From a virus, in IMG/VR virus record IMGVR_UViG_3300009987_000001, positions 1-64,000 of that record: DNA of 64,000 nt. One strand, given 5' to 3'. The notes below the pieces were generated by a model. That model was not told the origin of the DNA and made no database searches. It was given only the letters and a program-made list of their open reading frames with translations. This document shows, piece by piece, positions 3,459 to 49,205 of this stretch (its first letter is position 1; every line of letters starts with the position of its first letter). Made by a program: the position numbers and the translations under genes.

Positions 3459-3917
3459 TCAGTACCAGTCGATCACGACCGTTACGTGTGCCTGGCCCGT
3501 CTCCGACCCGTTGGACACTTTGATCGTCACGGTCACAGTCGACCGGCCGCCCTCGATGTCCTCCGCGTCCTCGCCGGCTCCGCCGTCGCTGTCATCGTTC
3601 TGCAGGATCAAACACTGCAGGTCGGCGACGTCCACTTCCTCATCCAGCACGAAGCCGGAATCGAAGTATTTGTTCGGGTCGGTGCCATCACCAACCTGCA
3701 CGCCGGCATCGTTGGTCGAACCAACGAAGTTCTCCGTGACTTGGTGCACCATCACATACGCGACTTTGCCGCGCTTGCCGGTGCCGCCGAACTTGTCCTT
3801 CGGTACCGAAATCAGATGCGTGAAGTCGTTCGCCGCACCGAAGTCAATCAGCCCGAGCTCGTGATGCAGACGTTCCGGCTTGTCGTAAAACGAACTCGGA
3901 CTACGCTTGTGTGCCAT
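3459..3917 (-). CDS. Hypothetical head-associated protein (decoration or accessory candidate)
   Basis: 152-aa ORF starting 18 nt after the capsid stop. It has an acidic Asp/Gly-rich C-terminal half. Confidence 0.55.
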   Translation of the reverse strand: MAHKRSPSSFYDKPERLHHELGLIDFGAANDFTHLISVPKDKFGGTGKRGKVAYVMVHQVTENFVGSTNDAGVQVGDGTDPNKYFDSGFVLDEEVDVADLQCLILQNDDSDGGAGEDAEDIEGGRSTVTVTIKVSNGSETGQAHVTVVIDWY

Positions 3918-3935: not shown

Positions 3936-4865
3936 TTAGGTGGCTTCCAGGCCGTCCCACACCAAAATGCGCGCCTGCGAAGCAGTGTCGTGCACGATGG
4001 AGTAGCCGAGCTGGGCATACCACGCGATACCGCGGGACCGACCGTAGTCGCCAGGCAATTTGCCGCGAATCTCTTCGGGAATTGCAAACGCCTCGATCAC
4101 CGTGTCAGCACCGAAGAAGAATCCGCGGTCGCTGAAGTTGAAGTCTGCGGCAGCGATGTTGGTCTGCTCCACGAAGCGGATGCCTTCGTAGCGCCCTTTC
4201 TCGCCGTTCATGATCACGTGCCAACCTTCCGCCGTGTACTGGTGGATCTCTTCCAGGTCGTCCTTGAAGGATCGCAGCGCGCTCGGCCGGAAGATCGACA
4301 TGTAGTTCGTGGAGTCGTACGTCGGAATGTTTCGTTCCGCCATCTCGTCCGCGATCGCCTTCACGTGATCGTTGCTGAGCTCCGCCTGGTGCGCGATATC
4401 CGGCGTGCCATCCACCGAGATGACAATGCCCGTAGCGGACGTCGCACTCACACGAATCGGACTCAGATTGAACTGGTTGTAGACCTGCCGATCGAGCGTT
4501 CGCCGCGCGTCGTTCTTCAGGACCTTGTTGATGATCTCGGTCACCGGATGCTCTGACCAGTCGTCGAGCCGCTTGGTGAACGGAACGCTGTTGCCGAACT
4601 CCGTGATCGTCAGACTGTTCTGCTCGATCGTGAAGTTGGTCTCCGGCATCACCTCGGTTTCGTCGAGCTCGCCGCCCTCGTCCGCTGTGTCGCCGTAGAT
4701 GTTCCAGTTGAACGTGTCACCGACGCCATGCCCCAACGCCTCGCGAATGTCAGCGAACTGACGGAAGCGAGTCATCGGCTGCAGCACTGCACGCAGCTTT
4801 CGAGACAGGTTGTCGGAATACATGAACCCGCCGATCGAGTCCACGCTCCAAATTTGTCCAGCCAT
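3936..4865 (-). CDS. Major capsid protein (HK97-fold type)
   Basis: 309-aa ORF directly downstream of the scaffold-like gene, with GGGAGG 8 nt upstream of the ATG. Length, composition and position are typical of a major capsid protein. Confidence 0.8.
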   Translation of the reverse strand: MAGQIWSVDSIGGFMYSDNLSRKLRAVLQPMTRFRQFADIREALGHGVGDTFNWNIYGDTADEGGELDETEVMPETNFTIEQNSLTITEFGNSVPFTKRLDDWSEHPVTEIINKVLKNDARRTLDRQVYNQFNLSPIRVSATSATGIVISVDGTPDIAHQAELSNDHVKAIADEMAERNIPTYDSTNYMSIFRPSALRSFKDDLEEIHQYTAEGWHVIMNGEKGRYEGIRFVEQTNIAAADFNFSDRGFFFGADTVIEAFAIPEEIRGKLPGDYGRSRGIAWYAQLGYSIVHDTASQARILVWDGLEAT

Positions 4866-4900: not shown

Positions 4901-6034
4901 TCAGGCTTGACCGCGCGCCTTTCGCATTTCCGCGATCACTTCTGATCTCGTCTGCGGCTTGGGCCCTTGTGGTGCCTCGTTTTTGGCGCTGCGCTGGCCT
5001 GGCAACTGACGCAAGTTCTGCTTGCGACTGTCGCGATTTTCCAGTGGTTTCTTGCCGCCTGCCGCGGGTTTCGCGATCGACTTCAGCCACTGTTGTGTCT
5101 GCTTCGCTGCCTCCTCTATGACCCTTTCAGGCGCCCAATCAGGATGCTCATTCGAGATCCGGTTGGTGCGTTGGTCAGCGGCGGCCCGCAAATTCTCGTC
5201 ATTGAAGATCTCGGGATAGTCCTTCTCGAACTTCTCGAACCCTCGCACGAGCGAGGCGTCGTACGCCTCTTGGGCCAACTGGGCACGCGTCTTGCGCACG
5301 ATCGCGTCCTCGTCGACGGGTGGAGCTGCGCTCGACCGCTTCTTGAGGAGCTTTTTCGTTGCAGCGGCGATCTCTTCTTTCGTGCCTTCCAGCACGAGTT
5401 TGGAGAATTCTTCCGCTTCCGCGTCCAGTTCTTTGTCGTCAGCGCCGGCAGACGCCGGTGGCTGTTCGCGCGCCTTGAGCTTTGCCTCGCGGGCATCGAG
5501 CTCCTGTTGGCGCGCGGTGAGGTGTTTGTTTACGTCAGCTGCCTGACGCAAACGTGCATCGGCCGCCTTGAGCTTCTGCGCGTCGCGCGTCAGCTCCTCG
5601 CGGTCGATCAACTGTTCCTGGCCGTCGACTTTGAGCTTGAACTTGACCTTGCCGCCCTCGACGACCACGTGGTCGGCGAGCAGCTTGTTCAGGTCAGGTT
5701 GGTCGCTCTCTTCGTTGTCGCCCGCGACAGCTTCCTTGCTGTCGGGTTCTTGCTCGACATCCGTGTCTGTGCCTTCGTCCTGAGCAAGCTCCGTTTGCTT
5801 ATCATCGTGGGACTCGGGCGCGACGTCCTGTTGTTCCTCTTCGGTCGTGGACTCATCCTGGATTTGTTCTTTTTGGATGAGTCCAGACGCAACTGCTTCG
5901 TCTGTGCTTGCCTTATACGCTGCTTGACGCTTGGCCGCAAGTGCCTCGATGAGGGCAATACGCGGATTGGGATTCGATTTCGGAGGCGTCGCAGTTTTTG
6001 CGGCGCCCTTTTTCTGGGTAGCCTTCAGGGGCAA
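4901..6034 (-). CDS. Scaffolding protein
   Basis: 377 aa, highly charged and Ala/Glu/Lys/Gln-rich with coiled-coil character, immediately upstream of the capsid gene. TTG start follows AAGGAGAA. Confidence 0.65.
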   Translation of the reverse strand: MPLKATQKKGAAKTATPPKSNPNPRIALIEALAAKRQAAYKASTDEAVASGLIQKEQIQDESTTEEEQQDVAPESHDDKQTELAQDEGTDTDVEQEPDSKEAVAGDNEESDQPDLNKLLADHVVVEGGKVKFKLKVDGQEQLIDREELTRDAQKLKAADARLRQAADVNKHLTARQQELDAREAKLKAREQPPASAGADDKELDAEAEEFSKLVLEGTKEEIAAATKKLLKKRSSAAPPVDEDAIVRKTRAQLAQEAYDASLVRGFEKFEKDYPEIFNDENLRAAADQRTNRISNEHPDWAPERVIEEAAKQTQQWLKSIAKPAAGGKKPLENRDSRKQNLRQLPGQRSAKNEAPQGPKPQTRSEVIAEMRKARGQA

Positions 6035-6340
6035 TTATTCTCCTTGCTCTTCTCTGTTCAGTTCTTTCTCTGCGGCGAATCCGTCCTGAATCGCCTCAGC
6101 ACAGTAGCGAATGAATGTGTTCGCTACATTCGCTTTGTGCTGTGCTTTGGTCGCGTTTTCCCGACCCTCCCTGCTTGTGAGATCACAAGCAAGGAGCTCT
6201 TCCTTCGCGTCTTCATAGTCGATTTTGGCGCGCTGGTGCAGGTAGCGACCAACGGTGGACCGCAAGAAATCCTCGACTTCGATGCCAAGGCGGGCCCTGA
6301 TGACGTAATCGTTTAGTTCTTGTTCGTAATCTACTTCCAA
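6035..6340 (-). CDS. Hypothetical protein upstream of scaffold
   Basis: Track ORF is 6035..6385. I prefer TTG 6340 (GGAG 5 nt upstream), which overlaps the stop of 6331..7401 by 10 nt. Confidence 0.5.
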   Translation of the reverse strand: MEVDYEQELNDYVIRARLGIEVEDFLRSTVGRYLHQRAKIDYEDAKEELLACDLTSREGRENATKAQHKANVANTFIRYCAEAIQDGFAAEKELNREEQGE

Positions 6341-7401
6341 TTGTACTCCACCCAAGGATACATTTTTTGCACGTTCGCATCCCAAGGATGCTGTTGGCCG
6401 GGGAAATATACCAGACGTGCGTTTGGCGGCAAGGGAGCCTCCAAACGCTCCTGCTGGCGCTTCTCCCAGCGCTCGCTGCGTCTCTGCTTTCGTGCAACGT
6501 CACGCGAGTACCGATTCGCGGTGCGCGGTGCGCGGTGTTCTGCCTTCGCCTGCTTCGCCATAAAGCGCTCGAGCGAATGGTTGCGGAGCGCACGGAACGC
6601 GTAAACGCCGTCCCGCTGCTCCCAGAAATAGTCGTCAGGTCCGAGTCGGCTGCCAATCCATGCCTGGTCCGAACCGAGGTGGTTGGTCTGCGCACGGAAC
6701 TCGTCGACCGTACCAACCACCGAGCCGTTCTGGAAATCATCCCAGATCTCCGGACGCGTGCCGGCGCGGTGGGTCACCAACGACCCGTTGCACTTCGATT
6801 GCCCGCCGTCTGGCCGCCAGATCCGGAAGTCGTTTTCGTCGGTCAGGATGTGATCGATGTTCCCGAGGATCACACAGTCCAGGTCAGACCACATCCAACG
6901 CGGGCCGAACACCTCCGATAACTCATCCGAAAACATCCTTAGTCGTCGAAAACAATTCGGCGTGTTCCCGTTCGCCGTGCCATAAGCAGGCACGGGACAC
7001 GGCCAGAGTTCGACGGGTTGGATTGACGAATCGAGTCCATCTGCGTCGTCAGTGATGCAATAAAGTTGATATGCCACGGTTGTATGTCGGGATAGCATGC
7101 TCGCAAAAACGTTGACATGTTCCGCAGTGAATTGACTTCGGTAGCCTTCTGTTTTCCACTTGAAGACGATGACATTGATTGACTCCTTCGGCACGATGTG
7201 CCCCTGCCCGTAGTCGACGATGCCGCCTCCGCGGGTGTACTGGATACTTCCGCTCTCAGCAGATTCCGCCGTCTCGAACTTCACGAATTCGGTTTCGTTT
7301 GCTGGTACGGTTGCCGTGCCGTCACAATAGTGACATGTTGGGTCGTGCAATTCGCCGTGTTTATAACAGTAAAAGTGCACGTTCAATAAACCTGATGCCA
7401 C
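6331..7401 (-). CDS. DxD-type (GT-A-like) glycosyltransferase with Cys/His-rich N-terminus
   Basis: VIVFKWKTEGYRSQFTAEHVNVF...YCITDD...WSDLDCVILGNID matches the nucleotide-diphospho-sugar transferase pattern with a DxD motif. The alternative start TTG 7386 overlaps the GT2 stop as TTGA. Confidence 0.6.
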   Translation of the reverse strand: MASGLLNVHFYCYKHGELHDPTCHYCDGTATVPANETEFVKFETAESAESGSIQYTRGGGIVDYGQGHIVPKESINVIVFKWKTEGYRSQFTAEHVNVFASMLSRHTTVAYQLYCITDDADGLDSSIQPVELWPCPVPAYGTANGNTPNCFRRLRMFSDELSEVFGPRWMWSDLDCVILGNIDHILTDENDFRIWRPDGGQSKCNGSLVTHRAGTRPEIWDDFQNGSVVGTVDEFRAQTNHLGSDQAWIGSRLGPDDYFWEQRDGVYAFRALRNHSLERFMAKQAKAEHRAPRTANRYSRDVARKQRRSERWEKRQQERLEAPLPPNARLVYFPGQQHPWDANVQKMYPWVEYNWK

Positions 7402-8084
7402 GGGAAGCGCAAAGGGTTCCTCGGCACCATGTTGTTTCTCTGTTTCTTCTGGTCGCGCCGTTTTATGTACTCCTCTTTCAGCGGTCCTTTACGGTCGATT
7501 CCACGAGTCGAACAGTCTTCAACAGTTCCGTTGAAGCCCATTGTGATAACGTCGTCCCAGTGTTGTCTGGATACTGTTTGCTCCAGTGCACGTAGGAAAA
7601 TGCCATCTCCGCCATAGCACCCACAGAAGTCCTCATCGTACCCTCCAGCACGCCAGAAAGATCGTCGCTGCACAAGGATCGTGTTGCAGTGTTGTTTCGG
7701 TGGTCGGCCATCTTCGAACATTCGCTCCATGGTGTAGTGGTGCTTCGGGTTGAAGTCCTTCAGCAAAATCGCCTGTACTGCTGCCTCGGGTACCATCACA
7801 TCCATGTCCGTCAGCAGCGCCCACTCTTCGTCACGAAGCTGTTTCATCCCGAGGTTACGCGCGCCGTGGGCATTGAACACGATGTCTTGGTCGATTCGAT
7901 ACAGCGACTTCTTGATCGTGCATGCGGCAAAGATATCCTCGGCCGGCTCAGGCGAGCAGTCGTCGATCAACACGATCTTGAGCGCTGCCTTCGTCTTTTC
8001 CGAGAACGAGTTCCAGTTCTTGACCTGCAGCTCGAGCATCGTCGGGTTGCGGTAGTACGGCATCACGAGCGTGAACTTACTCAC
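7383..8084 (-). CDS. Family 2 glycosyltransferase (GT-A fold)
   Basis: FTLVMPYYRNP...VLIDDCSPE...LLTDMDV (DxD) is the classic GT2 N-terminal signature. GTGA overlap with the upstream gene. Confidence 0.8.
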   Translation of the reverse strand: MSKFTLVMPYYRNPTMLELQVKNWNSFSEKTKAALKIVLIDDCSPEPAEDIFAACTIKKSLYRIDQDIVFNAHGARNLGMKQLRDEEWALLTDMDVMVPEAAVQAILLKDFNPKHHYTMERMFEDGRPPKQHCNTILVQRRSFWRAGGYDEDFCGCYGGDGIFLRALEQTVSRQHWDDVITMGFNGTVEDCSTRGIDRKGPLKEEYIKRRDQKKQRNNMVPRNPLRFPWHQVY

Positions 8085-8755
8085 GGATTCACCTTGTTCC
8101 TAGAGCGATCGTGCCGCGGCGGATCGCGCCACTCGCCTTTGACGAAGTTCTCAATCGAAATTCGCGGTACGCGCTCAGGTGCAATGATGCTCGTTCCTTT
8201 CGTCGCGACGACATACAAGTCACACTGCGCCATCTCGAATTGATGCGCGGCGTACTCGAACTCAGTCGACCATTCGGCCATCTTGGAAACTTTGGCGCCA
8301 CCGCCCCAAGAGTATGGCGGGTACCAATGTTTCTCGCCATTCGGACCGAGTTTGAAGTCGAAGCCGAGCATGAACACCCGCTTGGGCGCGAGCTGGTACG
8401 CCAGGTTCAGTGCGACCCTGCCGCTGTTGTTGCCCCACAGATGGCCAGGCTCGAGCGTCATCTGGCCGCGCCAGATGTCACCGAAGTACGGCACGAACTG
8501 CGGATACTCCGGCTGAACATTCTTCGCGGTGCACCGACGATAGTACGTAGTGATGCCAAGCTCGCGCATTTTGTCGATGCGGTGCTCGAGCCACAAACGA
8601 TCCATCGTCAGTGCGTAGTCGACCGGCATGTGAATTGCTGAGTCGTTGACTCCGATCACACATGCCTCGTTGATCAGATTGTTCCGAACCTTCTCCGGGA
8701 TCTTGCTGACGCTCCAACCGCCAGCGACGACCATTACGTTTACTGCGTTCTTCAA
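8081..8755 (-). CDS. DUF115/Maf-like Rossmann protein, putative glycosyltransferase
   Basis: VMVVAGGWS...VIGVNDS...DYALTMD...GNNSGRVALNLAYQLAPKRVFMLGFDF resembles the DUF115 (motility-accessory-factor) pattern as I recall it. Confidence 0.45.
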   Translation of the reverse strand: MKNAVNVMVVAGGWSVSKIPEKVRNNLINEACVIGVNDSAIHMPVDYALTMDRLWLEHRIDKMRELGITTYYRRCTAKNVQPEYPQFVPYFGDIWRGQMTLEPGHLWGNNSGRVALNLAYQLAPKRVFMLGFDFKLGPNGEKHWYPPYSWGGGAKVSKMAEWSTEFEYAAHQFEMAQCDLYVVATKGTSIIAPERVPRISIENFVKGEWRDPPRHDRSRNKVNP

Positions 8756-8756
8756 G

Positions 8757-9386
8757 TTACCTCGTCAGAATCCAATCATTGAAAGAGCGGTCGCGCAAAC
8801 GGTAGCCGTTCTTCGCGGCCCACTCGCCGACGCGCCTATCCTCACCCTTGAGAACTTCGAGACTCAGAACAGGCGAGAACTTCTTCAGTGTCTCGGTTGC
8901 GCCCGCAAGAACTTGCAACTCGTAGCGTTCGACGTCAAGAAAGATCGCGTCGCAATACTGGAGATTCAAACTGTCGATCGTTCTCATTGGCACTGTGACC
9001 TTGCCACACTGTCGACGCAGTGCCTTCGGGTCATTCGAAGGGAGCGCCGACGTGCATCCTGCGCGTTCGACCATCAACTCCAAAGTGCCTTCGGTAGGCC
9101 CGAGTGCGCACCAGTTGACATCCACGTGGCGGTACGGCTCGCTGTTCTTGTATGCGCAGTCGTACAGATACTTGACCGGCTCGAAGACATCGACCGTCGC
9201 GAAGAGTTTCGCCAAGTACAAGGCCCACATCCCGACCCAACCGCCCGCTTGAAGGCAGTAGTCGTGACCTTTAACGTAGCGCATCGCCACATCGATCGCG
9301 CCTATGCGCGACTTGGCGTGTGCGTAGTCCTTCACGTTCTCTTCGTCCGGCCAGTAGCAGCCGAGCTCCTCGTTGAACTGCATCAT
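8757..9386 (-). CDS. FkbM-family-like methyltransferase
   Basis: 209 aa. AIFLDVERYELQVLAGA resembles the FkbM K-x-D-x-E-G-x-E...L-x-G block. It sits among glycosyltransferases. Confidence 0.5.
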   Translation of the reverse strand: MMQFNEELGCYWPDEENVKDYAHAKSRIGAIDVAMRYVKGHDYCLQAGGWVGMWALYLAKLFATVDVFEPVKYLYDCAYKNSEPYRHVDVNWCALGPTEGTLELMVERAGCTSALPSNDPKALRRQCGKVTVPMRTIDSLNLQYCDAIFLDVERYELQVLAGATETLKKFSPVLSLEVLKGEDRRVGEWAAKNGYRLRDRSFNDWILTR

Positions 9387-10063
9387 TTCAAGCTCTCCTG
9401 AATTTCGCGGCCGATGCGCCAGAGCTTCCGGTTGCCAAACGCACCCAAATCATAGGCACGGATGCCGCGCGCGGCCAGTGGCGGCACCATACACGTTGCC
9501 ATCATACCGGCACAAAGCACTACAACTTCGGGCGAGTACGCCAGAATTTGCGCCTCGATCTCGTCATACATACCGAAATCGTTACGGCCGGTCGTTTTGA
9601 TGTAAAGAAGCTCGCTGGCATCCTTCATGTCTTCTGCAGTCAATGACGATCCGCTACCGACGAGCACTGTGCGCTTCTGCCACCACAACCGCTCGATCTG
9701 TGCTCGGTACCACTGCTCCTCATGCGCGATCCACGGTGCCTGGTCAGCGCGTGTGATGAAGGATGAAAAATACTGAACGTCCGGCCGGAGGAAAGGAGTC
9801 ATCTTCTTCACGAACGGTTGCCACCATTCGAACCGCGGTGATCCTGGTAGCGGGTTCGGAATGCCGATTGCCACGTTCTTCTGTGGCTTCTCTAGGATGT
9901 GAAGCAAACATCGTCTGATGCGAGGATCGTAGTCCTCGTATTTGTTGCCGACGCTACGCATCATCTTCACTTCGCCGTCGCCGTAGCGCGCCAACGATTG
10001 GCCTGTTTGCAACAAATGCCAGATGGTTTCCTTCTCGGATTGGACTTTAGGATATTCGTTCAT
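9383..10063 (-). CDS. GT-D-fold (DUF1792-like) glycosyltransferase, paralog 2
   Basis: SLARYGDGE...FSSFITRAD...TVLVGSGSS...VVLCAGMMATCMV...YDLG. Paralogous to 10070..10747. ATGA overlap with the downstream gene. Confidence 0.65.
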   Translation of the reverse strand: MNEYPKVQSEKETIWHLLQTGQSLARYGDGEVKMMRSVGNKYEDYDPRIRRCLLHILEKPQKNVAIGIPNPLPGSPRFEWWQPFVKKMTPFLRPDVQYFSSFITRADQAPWIAHEEQWYRAQIERLWWQKRTVLVGSGSSLTAEDMKDASELLYIKTTGRNDFGMYDEIEAQILAYSPEVVVLCAGMMATCMVPPLAARGIRAYDLGAFGNRKLWRIGREIQESLK

Positions 10064-10069
10064 TCGATG

Positions 10070-10747
10070 TTATTCAGACTTAACGAAGGGCTGAGTGTAT
10101 TGGCGCCAGTACATGCCGATGTGCCCAAGGTCAACTGCATGGAATCCTTTTCTAGCGAGTCTAGCAGCGAGGACAGTTGCGGTAGGTCCGGCACAGAGAA
10201 TGACTCGTCGGGTAGCTTGCAAACATTGACGTTCAAGATCGTCGATTTTTGAATAGGCGTCGCGATATGGGCACTCCACGAAGTTGACGTCTGCGTCATG
10301 TGACCGCAAGAAGTCTGGTTTGAGAGACCGCACGCCGTTGCCGACGAGCGTTACTTTCTGGCCACGCCATAACGACTCCACCTTGTCGAAATACTCAGGA
10401 GTCGCAATCCATGGCGCACTGTCGGGCCGCGAGATGAAGGCAGAAACGTACTTCACCTTCGGGTTCAGGAAGCGCGCGTATGATGGTGCGTACTTCAGCC
10501 AGGTCTGCTTGCCGGCCGGATTCATCGTCGGGATGCCCACCAGACAACTCTTCGGCGGGTCCGTCAACAAGGCAGCAATCTCAACAGTGAGCTTGGGGTC
10601 AGCAACCTGCGAAATATTCTTCCGTCCCATGACATGGTTCATCTCGCCGTCGCCGTACCGCGCAATCGACTTCCCGGCAAGGACGAGCTCGAGAGTCTCG
10701 AGCTCGCCCAGTACCTTCGGATAGACAGCTACGTTCGATTTGCCCAT
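10070..10747 (-). CDS. GT-D-fold (DUF1792-like) glycosyltransferase, paralog 1
   Basis: SIARYGDGE...VSAFISRPD...VTLVGNGVRS...VILCAGPTATVLAARLA..GFHAVDLGHI matches the DUF1792/GT-D signature from memory. Confidence 0.7.
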   Translation of the reverse strand: MGKSNVAVYPKVLGELETLELVLAGKSIARYGDGEMNHVMGRKNISQVADPKLTVEIAALLTDPPKSCLVGIPTMNPAGKQTWLKYAPSYARFLNPKVKYVSAFISRPDSAPWIATPEYFDKVESLWRGQKVTLVGNGVRSLKPDFLRSHDADVNFVECPYRDAYSKIDDLERQCLQATRRVILCAGPTATVLAARLARKGFHAVDLGHIGMYWRQYTQPFVKSE

Positions 10748-10793: not shown

Positions 10794-13124
10794 TTACTTT
10801 GTGGATGATTGCTTGGACTTGCTCGCTTGACCGGGTTTCTGATTCGGCTGTGCAGGCGGTTTCGGCGGTTGGCTGAGTTTGATATTCATCTCGCTCATCC
10901 GATTCGCCTCTTTCAGCGCCGTCGTATCGCGTGCTGTTCTGAGCTTGGCTTGCTCGATGCCCAGTCGTGTGTATAGCTCCTCCATCGACAGTTGCTCTTG
11001 GAGCGCGATCTTCGCGTATTCGATCTCGCGCTGCAGCTCGAGCTTCGCCTGCTCGCGCTTGTCGCGCATTTCGTTGTCCTGCTTCCGGATCTCCAGTTCC
11101 AGCATCTTGACCTGGACATCTGGCGGTGGAGGCGGCGGGCCCTTCTTCTCTTGGTCGGCCGCCAGCTCCTCATCCGTCATGAAGAACCGAGTTGAATCCT
11201 CGAACCCGAGCGCTCCAAAGATTTCATTCGCGACGTTGATCGACTTCAGTCGCGGCCCCATGTCAGGCAGAGACGACGTGTTGGCAATCGCGAATACCAG
11301 GCGCTCGACGCGCCGCATTGGATCAGTGTTTCCGATGGCGACGTTCACACGCACCAACAGGTCCTGTTCCATCAAGTCGTCCGTGACTTGATCCGATCCG
11401 TAACGAATCCAGAGATCCGAGTTCTTCGCGGCGAGCGCAAGAATCGTCTCATCGTTCTCATAATACGTGATCAGCCGGTCAACTTGGTTCAAAACTTTGT
11501 CGAGCCAAGTCACAAAAAAGATCTTGACTCCGTAGTCCTGAACTGCTCCGGCCGATCCTGCAACCTGCTGCAGCCCCTTCGCTGTCTCCGCACCGCGCGC
11601 CTTGCTTGACATCTGGCCGGTCTGACTGAATCCACCAACGAGCTCGTCAAAGTCAGTTGCAAGTCTGTCTTGCTCCTGGTATGAGCTGCCGGTCACGTCG
11701 TTGGTCGTGATCTCCTTCACGTCCTTGTCAGGATCGTTCACCATGATCCCGCCGCCAGGCACGTTGCGAACCAGCGCTTCCAGGTCAATCTGCGAGCCTC
11801 GCCGGATCATCCAGCGCTTATTCAGCGCCAGCTTGATGTTGTCGTAGCGCAGGTTGGCGACTTCGTTGATTTCCGTCTGCAGCGGCGCCGATTGCTCGAC
11901 ATCGCCGGCCGGGTGATTGCGATGCGCCTCGATCGTCGAGTACCCGACCGCGAAGGGTCGCTCGCCGCGCCGAAGATGCTGGAACTCCGGCATTTCATGC
12001 AGCGGTACTGGATCAGTCAGCACGAACTGCGTGCCGAGCGTCCACCAACCATAGTCGATTCCGCCCTCGCGCGACACGTTCAAATGCGCCCACACCGTTG
12101 TGTGCTCGTCGCTGCCGCGCTGTTGGTCCACGGGGTCCGTGCGTTGGTTGCCTTCGCGCGCCTGCTTCGTGCGCTCGTTGTCGAGATGGTACTTCCGAAC
12201 GCTCAGCACCTGAGCCAGGTTGTATTTGCGCCAGGGATTCGGCTTGCCCTCGTCCATCATGTCGAGCACGTCACCCGCATACATCGGTCGCAACCAAATG
12301 AGGTACGGGCTCGTGTTCACCGGGTCCCGCCAATCAGCCATCGGATCGAAGCCAAAGTTCTCCGGCTCGATCAGATCGACCATCGGCCGGTCGGACATGA
12401 TGTGTTTCTTCTTGCGCATGCGCGGCTTGATCTCGCCGGTAGCAGGATCAGTGTCCGCCAGCGCCGTGCCTTGGTCGTCCGTCTCGAGTTCGTCTTCCTC
12501 GAGATACTTGTATTCCCAGTACTGCGCCGAGATACACAAGCCATAGACCTTAGTGTCCTGGTACGCGCCGATGACCGTCAAGAACCACGGCATGCCGGAG
12601 AGACGATGCTCGATGACCTTCTTGCGAATCTGCGCCGAGATCACCATGCGCTCGTTCGTCTTGTCGACTGGCTGCACGTCCACGATGTCGATCGTCGAGA
12701 AAATAGCTGCGGCCGCACTTGCTTCCTGCGCCTTTACGTTGCTGCGAGTCTTGGGCCGGAACGTACGGCTGCGACGCCAGTCCTTCTTGCGGTAGTTGCT
12801 GCCAGGCGCATGCTCGCCGCGGAAGTGGGCGATGTTGCGCTCCCACTGCCGCGTGACGTTCGCTTCCATGTACGTCGTGTAGTTCGAATAGATGGTCGTT
12901 GCTTTGCGCAGCGCCCAAGAGTCGCTGTCGGATTGCGGCAGCGACTCTTGGATTACATCACCCGGCGACTTGTCAGGCGACTCGTTGCCAGCCGACCCCG
13001 CGGCCTGCGCACCCCAACCGGCGAAATCCCCTGGAGGGAGATCATCCGGATTACGACCATAGCCTCCCGACTCGCTTGGTCGTGTTTGTTTGATTGCTTC
13101 CTTGCGCTCTCCCTCATTTGCCAT
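10794..13124 (-). CDS. Portal protein with long coiled-coil, Pro/Lys-rich C-terminal extension
   Basis: 776-aa ORF between terminase and head genes. Size and position are portal-typical, and the C-terminal ~130 aa is a charged coiled coil. Confidence 0.75.
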   Translation of the reverse strand: MANEGERKEAIKQTRPSESGGYGRNPDDLPPGDFAGWGAQAAGSAGNESPDKSPGDVIQESLPQSDSDSWALRKATTIYSNYTTYMEANVTRQWERNIAHFRGEHAPGSNYRKKDWRRSRTFRPKTRSNVKAQEASAAAAIFSTIDIVDVQPVDKTNERMVISAQIRKKVIEHRLSGMPWFLTVIGAYQDTKVYGLCISAQYWEYKYLEEDELETDDQGTALADTDPATGEIKPRMRKKKHIMSDRPMVDLIEPENFGFDPMADWRDPVNTSPYLIWLRPMYAGDVLDMMDEGKPNPWRKYNLAQVLSVRKYHLDNERTKQAREGNQRTDPVDQQRGSDEHTTVWAHLNVSREGGIDYGWWTLGTQFVLTDPVPLHEMPEFQHLRRGERPFAVGYSTIEAHRNHPAGDVEQSAPLQTEINEVANLRYDNIKLALNKRWMIRRGSQIDLEALVRNVPGGGIMVNDPDKDVKEITTNDVTGSSYQEQDRLATDFDELVGGFSQTGQMSSKARGAETAKGLQQVAGSAGAVQDYGVKIFFVTWLDKVLNQVDRLITYYENDETILALAAKNSDLWIRYGSDQVTDDLMEQDLLVRVNVAIGNTDPMRRVERLVFAIANTSSLPDMGPRLKSINVANEIFGALGFEDSTRFFMTDEELAADQEKKGPPPPPPDVQVKMLELEIRKQDNEMRDKREQAKLELQREIEYAKIALQEQLSMEELYTRLGIEQAKLRTARDTTALKEANRMSEMNIKLSQPPKPPAQPNQKPGQASKSKQSSTK

Positions 13125-14545: not shown

Positions 14546-16048
14546 TCAGTAGATGTCTTCCGGCTCGAACGACCCTTCGTTGTCGTCCGGTTCGAATGAC
14601 CGCTGCGTGATGTCGCCAAGAGGTTCAGCGAACGTCAGAGCAATGGCGTCCGCCTCGTCTGGTGACTTCAAGTCGCGCTTTTTCATGTCCTGCTTTCGCT
14701 CTAAGCGCAACCGTTCCTTGTCATCGAAGAAGTACTGCACCTGAATCAATCCTTCGTACAGATCCACCTCATCGGGGATATCTGCACCGTGCAGCCAATC
14801 GCGCATATCCACCCACATCTCTGCGCGTTTATCGGCGTGTCGTTCCGGTTCTCGTGCCTTTTCGCCGCCGTTGACTTCAATGATGTCATACCCAAGCATC
14901 CGAAGTCTATCGACGACTCCGGCGCCTACACCAACGACGTCAACAAAGATAGCAACTGGTTTGTATTTTCGAATCGCCACCGACACCTTGTGCGCGAACG
15001 ACATGAGATCCAAACCAGAGAACGTTTGGATCTCCAGGATCTTGCGTCCTTGCCGGACACAGATCGCAGACTTGTCGTCGCCGTACCGCGCGACATCCAC
15101 GCCGATGACGATCGGCATGAGGATATGTGCCTCGAGCGGCAGCTCGCGATGAATGGCGTTCGTCGCGAGCTCGGTGCTGATGAACTGCAGCGATGCCGAC
15201 CGCGGAAACAGGCCGCGCACGCGCACACGCACGGGGTCGGTATCCTCGCCGCCGTAAGCGTCGATCATCTCCTGGATCTCTTGCTTGTTCGTCCGCTTCG
15301 CTGTGCGGCTGTCGATCGACTTCGGCTTCCAGCGCTTGCGGTCCCTATGGAAGCAAGCATGGAATCGACCCTCGTTGCGTGTCGGGTTGCCGAACACCAA
15401 CCACAGTGTCGCGCCGTCGGTCATTGCGCCTTCCGTCACTTCCCAAATCTTGTCGGGAATACCGGAGGCTTCGTCGAAAATGATCAGCTTGAACTCAGAG
15501 TGCAACCCCTGGAACGCATCAGAGTTGTGTTCGCTGTTCGGAGTTGCCGAGATGTACCACGTGCTCGAGTGCCGCTTGTCCGCGTGCTCGAACTTAGTCG
15601 CTGTCCAGGTGAACCAATGCTTGTTGATCGCACGCTTGTGCCACAGGGACAGCTCGCGCCACGTCTTCGTGTTGAGCTGCGCCATGGTGTTCGCAGTGAC
15701 GGCGCCGTTAAGGCCGTGCCGGGTCGACATCGCCCAGATGATGATCCACGCCACGAGCGCTGTTTTCCCGATGCCGTGGCCGGACGCAATGGCTCGCCGC
15801 ACGTTCGCAGTCGGGTCTTTGCGAATCGCCTTGCCGAGCTCGATCAGGTAGTCACGCTGCCACTTGTCTGGCCCTTCTGGCCAATCGGCGAGCTCGCCTT
15901 GCCCCCACTCGAAAGCCCACATTACATAGCCGTAGGGGTCGTCGAAGAAGTCTTCGACGTCCGAGATCAGTTCATTCTCGAACTGCTCGTCTGTTAGTCC
16001 TTGGGGTTCCTCATTTTGAGGGGTCGTCCAACCAGTCGTCTTCGGCAT
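14546..16048 (-). CDS. terL: Terminase large subunit
   Basis: Walker A ASGHGIGKT, Walker B LIIFDEAS and a C-terminal nuclease-type acidic region. I chose start MPKTTGW (16048) so that the overlap with terS is short. Confidence 0.85.
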   Translation of the reverse strand: MPKTTGWTTPQNEEPQGLTDEQFENELISDVEDFFDDPYGYVMWAFEWGQGELADWPEGPDKWQRDYLIELGKAIRKDPTANVRRAIASGHGIGKTALVAWIIIWAMSTRHGLNGAVTANTMAQLNTKTWRELSLWHKRAINKHWFTWTATKFEHADKRHSSTWYISATPNSEHNSDAFQGLHSEFKLIIFDEASGIPDKIWEVTEGAMTDGATLWLVFGNPTRNEGRFHACFHRDRKRWKPKSIDSRTAKRTNKQEIQEMIDAYGGEDTDPVRVRVRGLFPRSASLQFISTELATNAIHRELPLEAHILMPIVIGVDVARYGDDKSAICVRQGRKILEIQTFSGLDLMSFAHKVSVAIRKYKPVAIFVDVVGVGAGVVDRLRMLGYDIIEVNGGEKAREPERHADKRAEMWVDMRDWLHGADIPDEVDLYEGLIQVQYFFDDKERLRLERKQDMKKRDLKSPDEADAIALTFAEPLGDITQRSFEPDDNEGSFEPEDIY

Positions 16049-16871
16049 CAGCACCTTGTGCCGCGGGCACTTCTTCGTATTGTGCTTCGAGCACCGGCCT
16101 TGTTTCGCTGGCGACCTTGCGTCGCCGCCGCGCTGCGGCCAGGCGCTCGGCATGGTTCAAGTTCAGCTCGACGTTCACGTTGTTCTGAACGTTCTGCTGC
16201 ACGTTGACTGTGGAGGTGCGATCCGACGTACGCTCGCGGTACTTCACCGGGTTCGCGGCGCCTGCCAGCTGCATACGGGCTTTGATCTGGAGTTCAGAAC
16301 GCCTGACCGCGGCAGAGTTTCCCTTGCCTTCCCAGTCCTCGTCTCGAGATCTGTCGTTCGAGATCTCGATCACCTCGTCGGCGAAGTGTTCGGCCCGCAT
16401 CTGCAGCGCGAGCTCGTACTCGTCCTTCACCTCGGGGTCGCGCAGCGCCAGGCGCAGGAAGCTGTTGCGATCCTTGCCGACCGATTCACACGCTGTACGC
16501 ACGCTGTGCGAGCCGTCCGCGATCTTGTTGCAGATCTCGGTGATGATGCTGCGCGGCCAGTTGATGCGACCGCCCTCGATCTTCGCCGCGTTCCACGCCT
16601 CACGCATCTTCGGCTCGGTGCGCAGCGCGCCGTCCACCGTTGCCGGCGAAATGCTCAGCGTTTTGATTGCCTCTTCGGGGTCGCTACCGAGCGCAATCGC
16701 GCCGAGGAGCCGCGTCCAGTTGTCGGGATTCAACGGCTCGAGCGGCGGCGCAGCGAGCGCTACCTCGAGCGCCTTTTGCTGCTTGGCTGCCAGTTGTTCT
16801 TTTGTGGGGCGCCCGCCACCTTTACGAACCGCAGGTTTGCGATTGGTCTTCGGTTCGTATGGCTTCTTCAG
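16011..16871 (-). CDS. terS: Terminase small subunit, probable CTG start
   Basis: C-terminal AAVRRSELQIKARMQLAGAANPVKYRERT is terS-like. The frame is open and protein-like (KKPYEPKTNRKPAVRKGGGRPTKEQLAAKQQ) for 46 codons upstream of the first canonical start (TTG 16733), back to CTG 16871. Confidence 0.6.
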   Translation of the reverse strand: MKKPYEPKTNRKPAVRKGGGRPTKEQLAAKQQKALEVALAAPPLEPLNPDNWTRLLGAIALGSDPEEAIKTLSISPATVDGALRTEPKMREAWNAAKIEGGRINWPRSIITEICNKIADGSHSVRTACESVGKDRNSFLRLALRDPEVKDEYELALQMRAEHFADEVIEISNDRSRDEDWEGKGNSAAVRRSELQIKARMQLAGAANPVKYRERTSDRTSTVNVQQNVQNNVNVELNLNHAERLAAARRRRKVASETRPVLEAQYEEVPAAQGADAEDDWLDDPSK

Positions 16872-17647: not shown

Positions 17648-18856
17648 CTACACCCTTGCGAGGTACTTGTGAAGACTTGACACGACGGCCGCTCCTTCCC
17701 CTGCCGCCGTGGTCACGCGCTTCATGCTGTCGGCCCGGACATCACCGATCGCGAACACGCCCGGCATCGACGTCTGGAACAGCAGTTCTGCCGCTTCGCC
17801 AAAGTGTTGCGCTCGATGGCCCGTCAACACGAACCCGTCGTTGTCGCGGTCGATCGAGTTCGGCAGCCAGCCCGTGTTCGGTTCGGCGCCGAGCATCACG
17901 AACAAATGCCCTGCCGGCTCAGCGCCATTCAGACAGAAGCAGTTGTCTGGTTCCGTCTTCCGTTGCCAGTACACATGAGTCAGCTCACCGCATGCGCCAA
18001 CAAGCCTCGTGATGTTCGCCTGCTCGATCACGGTCACTGAGCTGTCCTTCCGGATGCGCTCGCTCAGGTAGCTCGACATCGAATCTTCGATCTGCTTGCC
18101 TCGCACGATCATCGTGACCTTGCAGCCGAGCCGGCACAAGAACAGAGCGGCCTGGCCAGCACTGTTGCCGGCACCGACGATAACGGCCGGTCGGCTACGG
18201 CACAGCTGCCCCTCCATCGGCGTTGCCGCGTAGTGGATGTTCGTGTTCTCGTACTCGGACCATCCAGGTACGTCGAGCTTGCGATACTTCGCGCCAGTGG
18301 CGATCACCACGGCTTTCGCCAGGAAGAAATTGTCCTCGAGCTGTATCACGTAGTGGTTGACGCCGCTGCCGAAAATGCCTTTGGCACACTCACCAATGGC
18401 AAACTTGGCGCCGAACTTCCTAGCCTGGGCGGCAGCTCGAGCGGCAAGTTGCCCGCCGCTGAGACCGGTCGGGAAACCCATATAGTTCTCGATGCGCGTG
18501 CTGGAGCCCGCCTGGCCGCCAGGGCCGAACTCATCGACGATAACCGAGGTTAAACCTTCGCTCGCCGCGAAGATGCCTGCAGCGAGTCCTGCGGGCCCTG
18601 CGCCGATGATTGCAACGTCCTGCACTTGACCATCGAACAGGCCGGTCGAATCGTTGGCTGGCGTCGGCATCAGGCCGAGCTCGCGTGCCACTGCTGCGAT
18701 GGTCGGCCGGACGATCATGTTCCGGTCGATGTATATGCGCGGCTGCGCCTCCTTGTCGCAGTCGTGGTTTCGGCGGTAGTGGAAGTTGTTCTGAGTCAGA
18801 AAACGCTGCAGCCGCAACACCTCGGCGGTGTCGCAACCCTCGATCATGATGTCCAT
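17648..18856 (-). CDS. Thioredoxin-reductase-like FAD/NAD(P) oxidoreductase lacking the CxxC redox pair
   Basis: VAIIGAGPAGLAAG (FAD), VIVGAGNSAGQAALFL (NADPH) and GVFAIGDV (FAD) are present. YAATPMEGQLC replaces the CATCDG site. There is an ~80-aa N-terminal glutaredoxin-like extension. Confidence 0.8.
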   Translation of the reverse strand: MDIMIEGCDTAEVLRLQRFLTQNNFHYRRNHDCDKEAQPRIYIDRNMIVRPTIAAVARELGLMPTPANDSTGLFDGQVQDVAIIGAGPAGLAAGIFAASEGLTSVIVDEFGPGGQAGSSTRIENYMGFPTGLSGGQLAARAAAQARKFGAKFAIGECAKGIFGSGVNHYVIQLEDNFFLAKAVVIATGAKYRKLDVPGWSEYENTNIHYAATPMEGQLCRSRPAVIVGAGNSAGQAALFLCRLGCKVTMIVRGKQIEDSMSSYLSERIRKDSSVTVIEQANITRLVGACGELTHVYWQRKTEPDNCFCLNGAEPAGHLFVMLGAEPNTGWLPNSIDRDNDGFVLTGHRAQHFGEAAELLFQTSMPGVFAIGDVRADSMKRVTTAAGEGAAVVSSLHKYLARV

Positions 18857-27737: not shown

Positions 27738-28736
27738 ATGTGCGCACCATCTGAGAATCTTTCCACCAAATCCACCCCAGTCGCAGAGTGGGTCAGCCTT
27801 CAGGGACGAGTCGGCGAGACAGGTTATGTCCGTCCGGGCGAGCCTTGGTTCTTTGGTACTGGCGTATTGAGACCGCTCGTGCCTCACCAGGTCAGTCTCG
27901 AACTCGACTCCTGCAACATGATTCGCATCGATTCAGACGTCACGCTCGAGCCTTACGTTCGCATCTATAAAGGCGTCACAGTCAAGCGCGGCGCGTTTAT
28001 TGGCAGTAGCACCACTCTCTTCACAGGCGCATTCATTGGTCAGGGTGCGCACATCGGCTTGACATGTCACATAGGCCGGGGAGCGAGAATTCCTCCCGGC
28101 ACTTTCATTCCGAGCTACTCAACTGTGCCAGCCCGCACGACCTGGGTCCAAATGCTCGGCAGAGAGCGTCGCGGCTACCCGGTACTTCTCGCGCGTGTGG
28201 CAGTGACACAGGAAGAGATCGGTGAAATGCATGTTGACGAGCGCCGCCTATTGCGCTCCGACGGCGAAGGAACCCACCACTACTATGTGATCTCGGCCGG
28301 ATGCCGGCTGATGACGTTACCGCAAGCACTGCAGCACTGGGGTGACGACTACAACGGTGCACCGCGCGACGCTCGCTTCATGCGAGTGATCCTCCGGAAC
28401 ATCGGCGAGATACTGTATGAACTCGAGGGCGAGTTCTACGACACCAATCTGATGCTGTCGATTCGGCGACCGCATCACCTACCGCAAGTGCTGTCATTTG
28501 ACGGATCGCCGCCCGAACCGCTCGTGAGAGTTTCGGGACTCGAAGTGTTGGCACCTCCGATCATCGCCTCCGCCCCCAGAGTCTCAAGCGAAGCCGGCCC
28601 GGAGCTTGCAGCAGTCGACTGCCCGGCACCCGAGTGCACGCCCACCGTCGAGATCGAAGACCAGATGCAAGAGAGCATCCGGAACAATCGATTCAACGAA
28701 GAGCTCGACACCAAACTCGAACAGCTCGGCTGCTGA
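27738..28736 (+). CDS. Left-handed beta-helix (hexapeptide-repeat) protein with a C-terminal AGCR..T..QAL.HWG motif
   Basis: Six consecutive hexads IGSSTT LFTGAF IGQGAH IGLTCH IGRGAR IPPGTF. The start is uncertain: ATG 27918 (MIRIDSD) would avoid the iteron at 27761-76. Confidence 0.55.
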   Translation: MCAPSENLSTKSTPVAEWVSLQGRVGETGYVRPGEPWFFGTGVLRPLVPHQVSLELDSCNMIRIDSDVTLEPYVRIYKGVTVKRGAFIGSSTTLFTGAFIGQGAHIGLTCHIGRGARIPPGTFIPSYSTVPARTTWVQMLGRERRGYPVLLARVAVTQEEIGEMHVDERRLLRSDGEGTHHYYVISAGCRLMTLPQALQHWGDDYNGAPRDARFMRVILRNIGEILYELEGEFYDTNLMLSIRRPHHLPQVLSFDGSPPEPLVRVSGLEVLAPPIIASAPRVSSEAGPELAAVDCPAPECTPTVEIEDQMQESIRNNRFNEELDTKLEQLGC

Positions 28737-39634: not shown

Positions 39635-40237
39635 ATGAGTAGAGTGTTGATAGGTATTTCAGGTCCCGCTCGGGCGGGCAAGGACACGTTCGCGAACTTC
39701 GTGAAGCGTCGTCTCTATGAGAAGGAACGCTTGCAGCCGAAGCGCTATGCGTTCGCGGCGCCGATTAAATATGGCCTGAAAGCCATGTTTGGTTGGACCG
39801 AGGATCATGTCGACGGCGAGCTGAAGGATGTTCTCGACGAGCGGCTGAATATCATCCCGCGCGAAGCCATGCAGGGGCTTGGTGACTGGGGTCGTACTGA
39901 GAACCTGTGGTTGATGCTGGCCAGGGAAGTGTTCGCTCAGTCATTGCCGCACGGCCTGGTCATCAGTGATGTTCGAACTGAATTCGAAGCAGACTGGATT
40001 CGTAGTGAGGGCGGGGCGGTTGTGGTGCTGCGCAGTACGGCAGCTACGACAACCGGTGTTTTGAGCAAACGTGCGGCACAACACCGCACCGAGGTTACGC
40101 TGGCGCCGAACAGGTTGGACTACCACACCAATCCGTTCGCAGGCCCAGTGGAGTTGGAGATCGAGGCGATTCGATTTGCCGAATGGTTTTTGAAGCAACG
40201 CAAACTGAATAAGGAGTACGTAAAGAGTGTCACTTGA
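39635..40237 (+). CDS. Deoxynucleoside monophosphate kinase (T4 gp1-like)
   Basis: P-loop IGISGPARAGKDTFANFV is typical of phage dNMP kinases. AGGAG upstream. Confidence 0.7.
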   Translation: MSRVLIGISGPARAGKDTFANFVKRRLYEKERLQPKRYAFAAPIKYGLKAMFGWTEDHVDGELKDVLDERLNIIPREAMQGLGDWGRTENLWLMLAREVFAQSLPHGLVISDVRTEFEADWIRSEGGAVVVLRSTAATTTGVLSKRAAQHRTEVTLAPNRLDYHTNPFAGPVELEIEAIRFAEWFLKQRKLNKEYVKSVT

Positions 40238-49001: not shown

Positions 49002-49205
49002 ATGCCGAAAGCAAAAGCAAAGACGATTTCGAAGGGTGAGTCACTGGTCGCAGCGCTGACTCATCTGGCGGCCAACCTGGGCGTGAACCAGGAGGACGAG
49101 GTGAAGACGGCCAGCGGCGCGTTGGCCCGCTACGTGCGCAAGCTCGAGAAGGAACTGGTCGAGCGCGGCGTCGCGATCAAGCAGGTCAAGGTCAAAGTCG
49201 AGTGA
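49002..49205 (+). CDS. Hypothetical small protein
   Basis: ATG 49002 lies 8 nt after GAGGAG. The track starts at GTG 48993. Confidence 0.5.
   Translation: MPKAKAKTISKGESLVAALTHLAANLGVNQEDEVKTASGALARYVRKLEKELVERGVAIKQVKVKVE

Follow-up and report, generated by a model that had tools for sequence, protein, structure and literature searches.

A glycosyltransferase and methyltransferase cassette between the portal and scaffold genes of a metagenomic phage recurs beside the head genes of unrelated phage lineages

Why does a phage carry a set of sugar-handling enzymes in the middle of the genes that build its head? The question is raised by 64,000 nucleotides of viral DNA (IMG/VR record IMGVR_UViG_3300009987_000001, positions 1 to 64,000; hereafter the window), which represent 64 of the 67.4 kb of the source contig, ENA ERZ777005 NODE_1 (67,429 bp). 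Six tightly packed co-directional genes, here called A to F, occupy positions 6331-10747 of the minus strand between the portal gene and the scaffold and capsid genes (Table 1), with gaps of -19 to +6 nt between neighbours. An earlier reading of the letters alone (the sequence-only reading) had described them as a six-enzyme glycosylation/methylation cassette that would modify virion proteins. Our analysis confirmed the observation and partly supported the interpretation, and the recurrence of the enzyme set beside head genes suggests that virions are coated with a methylated sugar chain. When genes were called independently on the source contig, the result was identical, in agreement with the six open reading frames (ORFs) first proposed, except for the start of F (7 codons later, giving 349 aa at 6331-7380) and the length of the small gene downstream of the cassette (101 aa).

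The enzyme identifications made in the sequence-only reading held in comparisons with Pfam, PHROG, PDB and Foldseek, and all of the motifs that it had quoted are in the translations. By sequence, A and B are GT-D/DUF1792 glycosyltransferases (GTs), for which sugar transfer is predicted. They are 37% identical to each other and scored 83.9 and 58.7 bits, respectively, against Pfam PF08759 (cut-off 27), covering profile positions 1-207 and 1-199 of 225; A also matched the DUF1792 structures 5v4a (E=3.9e-19) and 4pfx (E=5e-18) in PDB. ARYGDGE, LCAG and DLG were found in both proteins, and R30, G32, D33 and E35 of RYGDGE, which include the DxE, are invariant across 27 GT-D homologues. A conserved DxE metal-binding motif of the GT-D fold was reportedly described by Zhang et al. 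in 2014. In NCBIfam, the nearest family was that of the SP_1767 accessory glycosyltransferases of serine-rich adhesin loci (TIGR03728), although A (87 bits, E=1e-24) and B (55 bits) fell far below its cut-off of 291. C, with a 4-nt overlap between its start and the end of B, is an FkbM-family S-adenosylmethionine (SAM) methyltransferase; its scores were 35.2 bits for PF05050 (cut-off 22.7) and 61.1 bits for TIGR01444 (cut-off 37.7). E carries the motifs IDDCS (hence the DDCS first quoted) and TDMD, and matched PF10111 (30.9 bits, cut-off 27.3), PF00535 marginally (23.4 bits, cut-off 23.3) and PglI in PDB (9jma, E=2e-4), as a GT2-family enzyme.

F and D were placed by structure. No Pfam family, Glyco_transf_8 included, matched F at E<=0.01, and a profile of 43 sequences gave only a weak glycogenin match in PDB (E=0.007). 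The AlphaFold2 model of F, with a core predicted local-distance difference test score (pLDDT) above 90, matched glycogenin 1zct, LgtC 1g9r, GlyE 5gvv and Skp1-AgtA 6mw5 in Foldseek at E~1e-8; for 1zct and 1g9r, the probability was 1.0, E=1e-8 and the template-modelling (TM) score 0.41-0.57. F contains the motif WSDLDCVILGNID, and D173 and D175 of its DxD are invariant in the 43 sequences. The model thus sharpens the earlier 'DxD GT-A-like' label to GT8-like, by fold and not by sequence membership. The N-terminal ~65 aa of F (about 7190-7401) are an extension with pLDDT below 50 and a C-x2-H ... C-x2-C pattern that is missing from its homologues, which have 235-290 aa; the extension may represent a targeting module that resembles a zinc ribbon, or else a small ORF that became fused to F.

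D scored under threshold against Pfam MptE-like PF01973 (E=0.006; 16.8 bits versus 34.6), had no match in NCBIfam and found nothing meaningful in PDB by sequence, either singly or as a 48-sequence profile. Its model (pLDDT 94) gave weak Foldseek matches to the archaeal MptE pyrophosphokinase (HPPK) 8sd5 (E=8.5e-4, probability 1.0, TM 0.45) and to the sialyltransferase ST8SiaIII 5bo9 (E=7e-4, TM 0.36), and stronger ones to viral MptE-like/DUF115 models (E=1.6e-11 to 1e-5, TM up to 0.72). Fold comparison alone places D, weakly, in this group, and its function is the least certain of the six.

Do these enzymes work together? A GT-D alignment retrieved 80 IMG/VR loci, to which look-ups of the encoding contigs added more; gene order was worked out by tblastn and ORF clustering, and dereplication at 90% GT-D identity left 66 groups. 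The recurring order was GT-D, zero to three methyltransferases, D, E and F. F was present in at least 53 of the groups, E and a methyltransferase in at least 48 each and D in at least 32, all of them lower bounds because many loci are incomplete. The methyltransferases belonged to the FkbM or Methyltransf_23/12/11/24 families or to an unannotated family with a SAM-binding-like motif. A second GT-D gene was also found in relative L003, and the cassette of L042 is larger (~14 genes, with a TOD1/MUCI70-like GT and extra methyltransferases). When a GT-D profile was run against 1.84 billion representative proteins, it defined a subfamily of 324 clusters at 50% identity with E<=1e-30 (1,959 clusters at E<=1e-10). 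The 148 best representatives included 35 long proteins, and local BLAST identified among them 21 GT-D::Methyltransf_23-type and 4 GT-D::FkbM fusions and one each of methyltransferase::GT-D, GT2::GT-D and tandem GT-D::GT-D (P0284); a GT-D::methyltransferase fusion is also present in the Bradyrhizobium locus described below. The conserved order and the recurrent fusions indicate that the components act in one pathway.

None of the six proteins has a membrane segment, which fits a cytoplasmic target and the use of host sugar nucleotides, as had been proposed. In line with the earlier reading, no genes for sugar-nucleotide synthesis, flippase or polymerase were found in the ~60 window ORFs scanned. 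Some relatives do add a PseF/KdsB-like synthetase for cytidine monophosphate (CMP)-activated sugars: in L006-L008, a cytidylyltransferase gene with PseF as its best match (E=6e-27) and KdsB as the next directly precedes the GT-D gene. This arrangement would fit the use of a CMP-activated ulosonic acid by D.

Does the cassette keep company with head genes elsewhere? When placements were assigned by Pfam on cluster representatives, at least five unrelated head-gene lineages had the cassette inside their packaging/head module or next to it, and the junctions differed, so that the comparison suggested in the sequence-only reading came out in favour of a link with head genes. It lies between an SU10-type portal and the scaffold gene in the window, L003, L011, L014 and L019/20. 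In the largest class (type II; 17 groups, including L004 and L006), it is placed directly upstream of an SU10-type portal and of terminase genes that are transcribed divergently. In HK97-type genomes, it is found between the large terminase and portal genes (L035, L037, L038, L041 and L052) or between MCP (major capsid protein) and head-completion genes (L057, L058, L061, L066-69, L082, L087 and the isolate S20). Lambda-type portals also adjoin the cassette, and in L048 an extra F-like GT gene immediately follows a gpE-type MCP gene; in L002, L034, L040 and L079, the cassette comes after a PF06381 portal (portal_3) and MuF. In 42 of the 66 groups, a recognised packaging/head gene was no more than 1 kb from the cassette, and in 49 it was no more than 3 kb away. 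Thirteen groups had no recognised head gene, and in four of these, head-completion, gp10-like or tape-measure genes were directly downstream. In the type II loci L006-L008, a Tad2-like (anti-Thoeris) gene and ribbon-helix-helix regulators were found a few genes upstream of the cassette (~8778-9083).

Cultured carriers exist. Among 50,697 phage records, homologues of both GT-D and F occurred only in "Tetraselmis viridis virus" S20 and SI1 (L088/L179; NC_020840, HQ632857, HQ632858). These are siphophages whose head genes are of HK97 type and which also encode a tape measure, an endolysin and RecT. Although a green alga is recorded as their host, they presumably infect a bacterium that was present in the algal culture. 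S20 has nine cassette genes, placed after the HK97-type MCP gene (with a 188-aa gene) and before the head-closure gene. A lambda-like prophage of Bradyrhizobium sp. JYMT SZCCT0428 (L089; NZ_JAFCLS010000004, ~111-132 kb) encodes a gpA terminase, a lambda-type portal, an S49 protease and a gpE-type MCP, and its cassette lies ~1.5 kb downstream of the MCP gene.

Is the cassette an original part of the window's head operon? A nucleotide search of the region against the 50,697 phage records gave no match, and the phage is known from metagenomes only; a single-protein search of IMG/VR with the portal returned nothing. Relatives were gathered by MCP alignment, which gave 80 IMG/VR loci with MCPs 52-78% identical to that of the window. 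The nearest isolates are Vibrio phages (portal identity 33%). In Vibrio phage 1.232.O, the portal gene is followed by a 108-aa gene, the scaffold gene and the MCP gene with nothing in between, which bears out the earlier claim that the portal-scaffold-capsid order is interrupted in the window. Of the 54 MCP-relative loci holding both portal and scaffold genes, one (the L011/L095 contig) carries the cassette; the remaining 53 have a median portal-scaffold gap of 845 nt with small basic or low-complexity ORFs. Because 53 of 54 relatives are without it, the cassette is an accessory insertion, and a rare one, at a junction that is a variable spot. GC content is slightly lower in the cassette (55.9% versus 58.6%), and no flanking direct repeats were found around it. 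The portal/scaffold junctions of L100-L125 hold unrelated small ORFs, including extremely Gly/Pro/Arg-rich low-complexity proteins of 180-220 aa. In Vibrio phage 1.232.O (L001, MG592596; 6679-8477), the annotated MCP is ~20 residues shorter than its homologues, and after it come 440 nt without annotation and then a gene for an HNH nuclease, a combination suggesting that this capsid gene may hold an intron or homing element.

What would such a cassette do? We give a probability of about 0.6 to cytoplasmic assembly of an O-methylated oligosaccharide on virion proteins, probably those of the head. The observations that support this reading are the folds, the solubility, the compact operon, the pathway coupling, the accessory insertion and the linkage to head modules. 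The six soluble enzymes would be made late, together with the head proteins, as one pathway. Using SAM and the nucleotide sugars of the host, they would work in the cytoplasm and furnish at least one virion protein with a short O-methylated oligosaccharide, either before the head is assembled or while this happens. The most likely acceptor would be the MCP or another head protein. One enzyme would start the chain on a protein side chain, either the Maf-like D or the GT8-like F, the latter being a candidate because its fold relatives include the self- or protein-glycosylating glycogenin, GlyE and Skp1-AgtA. E and the two GT-D enzymes would then extend the chain, a CMP-activated ulosonic acid, either Kdo or a nonulosonic acid, may be contributed by D, and the FkbM enzyme would cap the chain with a methyl on a sugar hydroxyl. 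Once exposed, the glycan would alter the virion surface, for instance through shielding, stability or adhesion.

Several results weigh against glycan assembly on head proteins. Alignment of the window MCP with cassette-less homologues revealed no Ser/Thr-rich C-terminal tail of the mycobacteriophage kind and no obvious insertion; the capsid, which the sequence-only reading had suggested as an acceptor, is a putative one. The same reading had singled out the 152-aa ORF at 3459-3917, which we rejected as a cassette-specific acceptor since it is also present in relatives without the cassette (L110, L128-131 and L136-138); it is possible that it is one of several acceptors. No non-enzyme family was found to travel with the cassette across lineages, so that the initiating enzyme would have to recognise either very different head proteins or a generic feature. 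The type II cassette ends a run of small early-looking genes and adjoins the head module without being inside it, and may belong to an early or middle operon. By fold, D might not be a glycosyltransferase at all but an enzyme of pyrophosphokinase-like type. Finally, GT2 and GT8-like folds also serve phage DNA glycosylation and bacterial lipopolysaccharide (LPS) synthesis (bioRxiv 10.1101/2023.12.21.572611), so that the fold alone cannot name the acceptor.

These other uses of the same folds define the alternatives. The GTs could build a glycan on 5-hydroxymethylcytosine (5hmC) or 5-hydroxymethyluracil (5hmU) of the phage genome, maybe coupled to packaging, and thereby block restriction or nucleases. 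Phage GT-A (GT2/TarP/JGT-like and GT8-like) and GT-B enzymes do add mono- to trisaccharides to 5hmC, and the gene clusters involved are sometimes near terminase and structural genes (bioRxiv 10.1101/2023.12.21.572611), just as the cassette often adjoins terminase and portal genes; the window also encodes a deoxynucleotide monophosphate kinase. However, neither a thymidylate-synthase-like hydroxymethylase nor a TET/JBP dioxygenase or C5-cytosine methyltransferase was found by Pfam or PHROGs in the ~60 window ORFs scanned, all but the smallest ones, from 64 of the contig's 67.4 kb. In 87 loci, the families encoded up to 10 kb from the cassette likewise included none that could be a source of 5hmC or 5hmU. 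Genes for a polymerase or for nucleotide metabolism are missing from the complete S20 genome (39 kb), whose sole DNA methyltransferase carries a DPPW motif of the N6-adenine type. Moreover, the cassette methyltransferases are of FkbM or small-molecule class I types rather than DNA methyltransferases, DNA-modification genes are not typically placed, as the cassette is in temperate siphophages, between the genes for the MCP and for head completion, and GT-D, FkbM and the contigs studied here are absent from the supplementary tables of bioRxiv 10.1101/2023.12.21.572611. The lack of hydroxymethyl-pyrimidine genes in these searches argues against DNA glycosylation, which we regard as quite improbable.

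Remodelling of the host envelope, the alternative named in the sequence-only reading, is also unlikely. The enzymes would act at the inner membrane face on lipid A-core, undecaprenyl-linked or other precursors and so change the cell surface, with superinfection exclusion or keeping progeny from sticking to debris as examples of the benefit. GT2, GT8 (LgtC/WaaJ-type) and Kdo/nonulosonate-type transferases are typical enzymes of LPS or lipooligosaccharide synthesis that sit peripherally on the membrane; the PHROG labels of E read 'GtrB-like O-antigen conversion', and the cytidylyltransferase that precedes the cassette in L006-L008 would suit such a role. Nevertheless, the initiating phosphoglycosyl transferase, flippase, polymerase and ligase were not found in the cassette or the window ORFs scanned, and the genes sit in late structural operons, including those of the Bradyrhizobium prophage and of HK97-like genomes of temperate type, where they would be silent in lysogens and expressed too late in lytic growth for a surface change. 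The Gtr and D3 O-antigen conversion modules lie outside head operons and come with membrane proteins. Envelope remodelling also leaves the repeated independent placement beside head genes without explanation. That placement has less meaning if the position is simply a permissive insertion site and the enzymes act on some other cytoplasmic target, such as an RNA, a small molecule or a host protein, for example a translation factor or immune sensor. The portal/scaffold junction is indeed variable, with unrelated small ORFs in relatives, early genes of anti-defence-like type (Tad2-like) precede the type II cassette, the predicted fold of D resembles that of a pterin pyrophosphokinase, and GT8-like bacterial effectors glycosylate host proteins. 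Yet a permissive site fails to explain at least six junctions in at least five unrelated lineages, all within the packaging/head module, and inactivating modifications are normally single sugars, so that a multi-sugar methylated glycan would be unusual. We consider such a target as improbable as DNA glycosylation.

Two observations made during these comparisons may bear on acceptors and relatives of the cassette. Several HK97-like phages have, a short way upstream of the cassette, a gene for a collagen-repeat protein (ORF cluster 17; Pfam Collagen E=4e-20), directly adjoining it in L042, L050 and L065 and one to three small ORFs away in L056, L060, L062, L063, L071 and L077; it is an attractive candidate for an acceptor or head fibre. 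In Pseudomonas phage D3 (L177, NC_002484), a short D-like gene, orf7, lies right after the major head protein gene, and a methyltransferase gene, orf13, is inserted among the head-tail connector genes (5827-6285 and 8402-9019, respectively). The match of orf7 to D is weak and partial (E=6e-4), and the pair may be a reduced relative of the cassette.

How does the proposed pathway compare with known ones? A precedent comes from mycobacteriophages, in which tandem phage-encoded GTs beside an O-methyltransferase glycosylate capsid and tail-tube subunits, according to PMC11600133, PMC12363180 and PMC12619734, citing Freeman 2023. The likeness to the systems of Che8, Corndog and Myrna lies in GTs next to a methyltransferase, here five GT-like genes and FkbM; like the pathway proposed here, the mycobacteriophage system is described as cytoplasmic, as using host sugar donors and as accessory rather than essential for assembly. 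In contrast, its virion glycans are demonstrated and its acceptors described as C-terminal tails, whereas glycosylation by the cassette is predicted and no such tail is evident on the window MCP. The hosts also differ, being Actinobacteria for mycobacteriophages and Proteobacteria for the phages and prophages with the cassette (for example, the one in Bradyrhizobium); Vibrio and E. coli are the hosts of the isolates most closely related to the window phage. Consistent with a different enzyme set, tblastn of A, D and F against the 50,697 phage records returned no mycobacteriophage.

The chlorovirus PBCV-1 uses virus-encoded cytoplasmic GT-A enzymes and a methyltransferase domain (A064R and partners) to build a methylated oligosaccharide on its MCP. 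We know of no GT-D or DUF115 component in that system. By description, it resembles the proposed pathway in being independent of host secretory machinery, but it belongs to a giant virus of eukaryotes, whose capsid has a double-jelly-roll fold and whose glycans are N-linked. PBCV-1 capsid glycosylation is mentioned in bioRxiv 10.1101/2023.12.21.572611.

The closest solved relatives of A and B (4pfx) and one of those of F (5gvv) take part in the cytoplasmic O-glycosylation of serine-rich adhesins. A and B are homologous to the DUF1792 enzymes of the streptococcal serine-rich-repeat systems (Fap1 dGT1/GalT1 and SP_1767; 4pfx, 5v4a and TIGR03728), and F has the GT8 fold in common with GlyE of the PsrP system. 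Both would involve stepwise cytoplasmic extension of a glycan on a structural protein before export or assembly. However, the GtfA/GtfB (GT4) initiator, the accessory Sec system and the serine-rich acceptor are missing from the cassette, and the context is adhesin islands of Firmicutes in one case and phages in the other. Maf (DUF115) enzymes glycosylate flagellin with CMP-pseudaminic or CMP-legionaminic acid. D has a putative DUF115/MptE fold, some cassettes add a PseF-like cytidylyltransferase, and in both systems a subunit that later polymerises into an extracellular structure would be modified in the cytoplasm. In contrast to Maf, D is a ~220-aa core without the flanking domains and with a sub-threshold Pfam score; no nonulosonate synthesis genes were found in the window, and D is missing from about half of the cassettes. 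The DNA-glycan clusters of Pyle et al. (bioRxiv 10.1101/2023.12.21.572611) resemble the cassette in their multiple GTs, host sugar nucleotides and GT2/TarP-like and GT8-like folds, but are defined by a C5-methyltransferase with 5mYOX or by a ThyS-like enzyme, none of which was found here, and are without GT-D, FkbM and DUF115 components.

The coordinates of the cassette and its neighbours are listed in Table 1. The late operon includes small and large terminase genes, and three small genes separate the latter from the portal gene, which lies 46 nt from A. Homologues of the small gene that marks the downstream boundary directly follow the portal gene in cassette-less relatives (L107, L128, L134 and others), and its counterpart in Vibrio phage 1.232.O is NVP1232O_06. 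The scaffold-like protein had no match in Pfam. The window MCP is 91% identical to that of L003 and 55-56% identical to that of the Vibrio phages, and an SU10-type adaptor gene comes after the gene for the 152-aa protein. Scanning the gene strand within A-F for promoters and terminators yielded two weak terminator-like sites and zero promoter-like sites, and no internal signal rose above background; the sole promoter-like match was just upstream of the small gene after the cassette.

Table 1. Genes of the cassette and of the surrounding late operon, with window coordinates
Feature	Coordinates	Strand	Basis or remark
Sf6-type small terminase	16011-16733	-	Late operon
Large terminase	14546-16153	-	Late operon
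Portal, SU10 type	10794-13124	-	PF23899 E=9.6e-22; upstream boundary of insertion
A: predicted GT-D (DUF1792) glycosyltransferase, 225 aa	10070-10747	-	Pfam PF08759 E=1.9e-23
B: second predicted GT-D paralogue, 226 aa	9383-10063	-	Pfam PF08759 E=9.2e-16
C: FkbM-family SAM methyltransferase, 209 aa	8757-9386	-	PF05050, TIGR01444, phrog_8156 E=1.6e-22
D: putative DUF115/MptE-fold protein (sialyltransferase/Maf-like Rossmann fold), 217-224 aa	8081-8755	-	phrog_4603 E=2.2e-16
E: GT2-family (inverting GT-A) glycosyltransferase, 233 aa	7383-8084	-	PF10111, PF00535
F: putative GT8-like (retaining GT-A) glycosyltransferase, 349-356 aa	6331-7401	-	phrog_1962 E=8.7e-10
Small conserved gene, 101-116 aa	6035-6385	-	Downstream boundary of insertion
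Scaffold-like coiled-coil protein, 377 aa	4901-6034	-	Position and composition; conserved in relatives
Major capsid protein	3936-4865	-	PF25209 E=1.2e-8; phrog_1357 E=9e-19
Acidic 152-aa protein after MCP, possible head accessory protein	3459-3917	-	No match in Pfam, PHROG or PDB

Other genes of the window are noted here for completeness. A thioredoxin-reductase-like pyridine-nucleotide disulphide oxidoreductase of 402 aa is encoded just upstream of the late operon (17648-18856, minus strand); its gene is followed by a strong terminator-like hairpin at 17083-17056 and is kept at the same place in relative L003. The replication genes specify a D5-type primase-helicase, PolA, a DUF2800 nuclease, an Enc34-type single-stranded-DNA-binding protein and SNF2, and among them are the deoxynucleotide monophosphate kinase (39635-40237, plus strand) and a small PolyA_pol-head nucleotidyltransferase (49202-49720, plus strand). 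A hexapeptide-repeat protein of 332 aa (27738-28736, plus strand) gave weak NeuD/LpxD/GlmU-type matches and is possibly a sugar or acyl transferase. We did not count it as a sugar acetyltransferase of the pathway because the matches are those of a generic left-handed beta-helix and the gene lies 17 kb away in the early region.

Phage-encoded glycosylation and methylation cassettes tied to structural genes are of a known kind; what is new is the enzyme set, its occurrence in phages of Gram-negative hosts and its wide spread. As far as the literature could be searched, the cassette is undescribed, as the sequence-only reading had supposed: we found no paper that links GT-D/DUF1792 to phages and no discussion of the S20/SI1 cassette, and virion glycosylation of tailed phages was described only for mycobacteriophages. 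We tentatively suggest, at somewhat less than even odds, that many tailed phages of Proteobacteria share a horizontally mobile, phage-specific 'virion glycan' pathway (GT-D, GT2, GT8-like, one to three methyltransferases, an optional DUF115-like protein and in some cases a CMP-ulosonic-acid synthetase), which decorates HK97-fold capsids of quite different lineages with a methylated oligosaccharide that varies. If so, capsid glycosylation would be a general and diversifying feature of the phage surface and not a mycobacteriophage curiosity.

Virion glycans of mycobacteriophages blunt antibody recognition. If the cassette has an equivalent role, many phages of Gram-negative hosts in soil and water would carry surface glycans, and the enzymes that make them would be a set with no earlier link to phages. 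Such glycans would bear on the immunogenicity and clearance of phages in therapy, on virion stability and environmental adhesion, on the evasion of bacterial sensors of capsid or portal proteins and on the reading of unexplained densities in cryo-electron microscopy maps of capsids, and the enzymes would offer a compact, soluble, cytoplasmic toolkit for glyco-engineering. The cultured carriers, namely the prophage of Bradyrhizobium sp. JYMT SZCCT0428 and the isolates TvV-S20/SI1, make the question directly testable.

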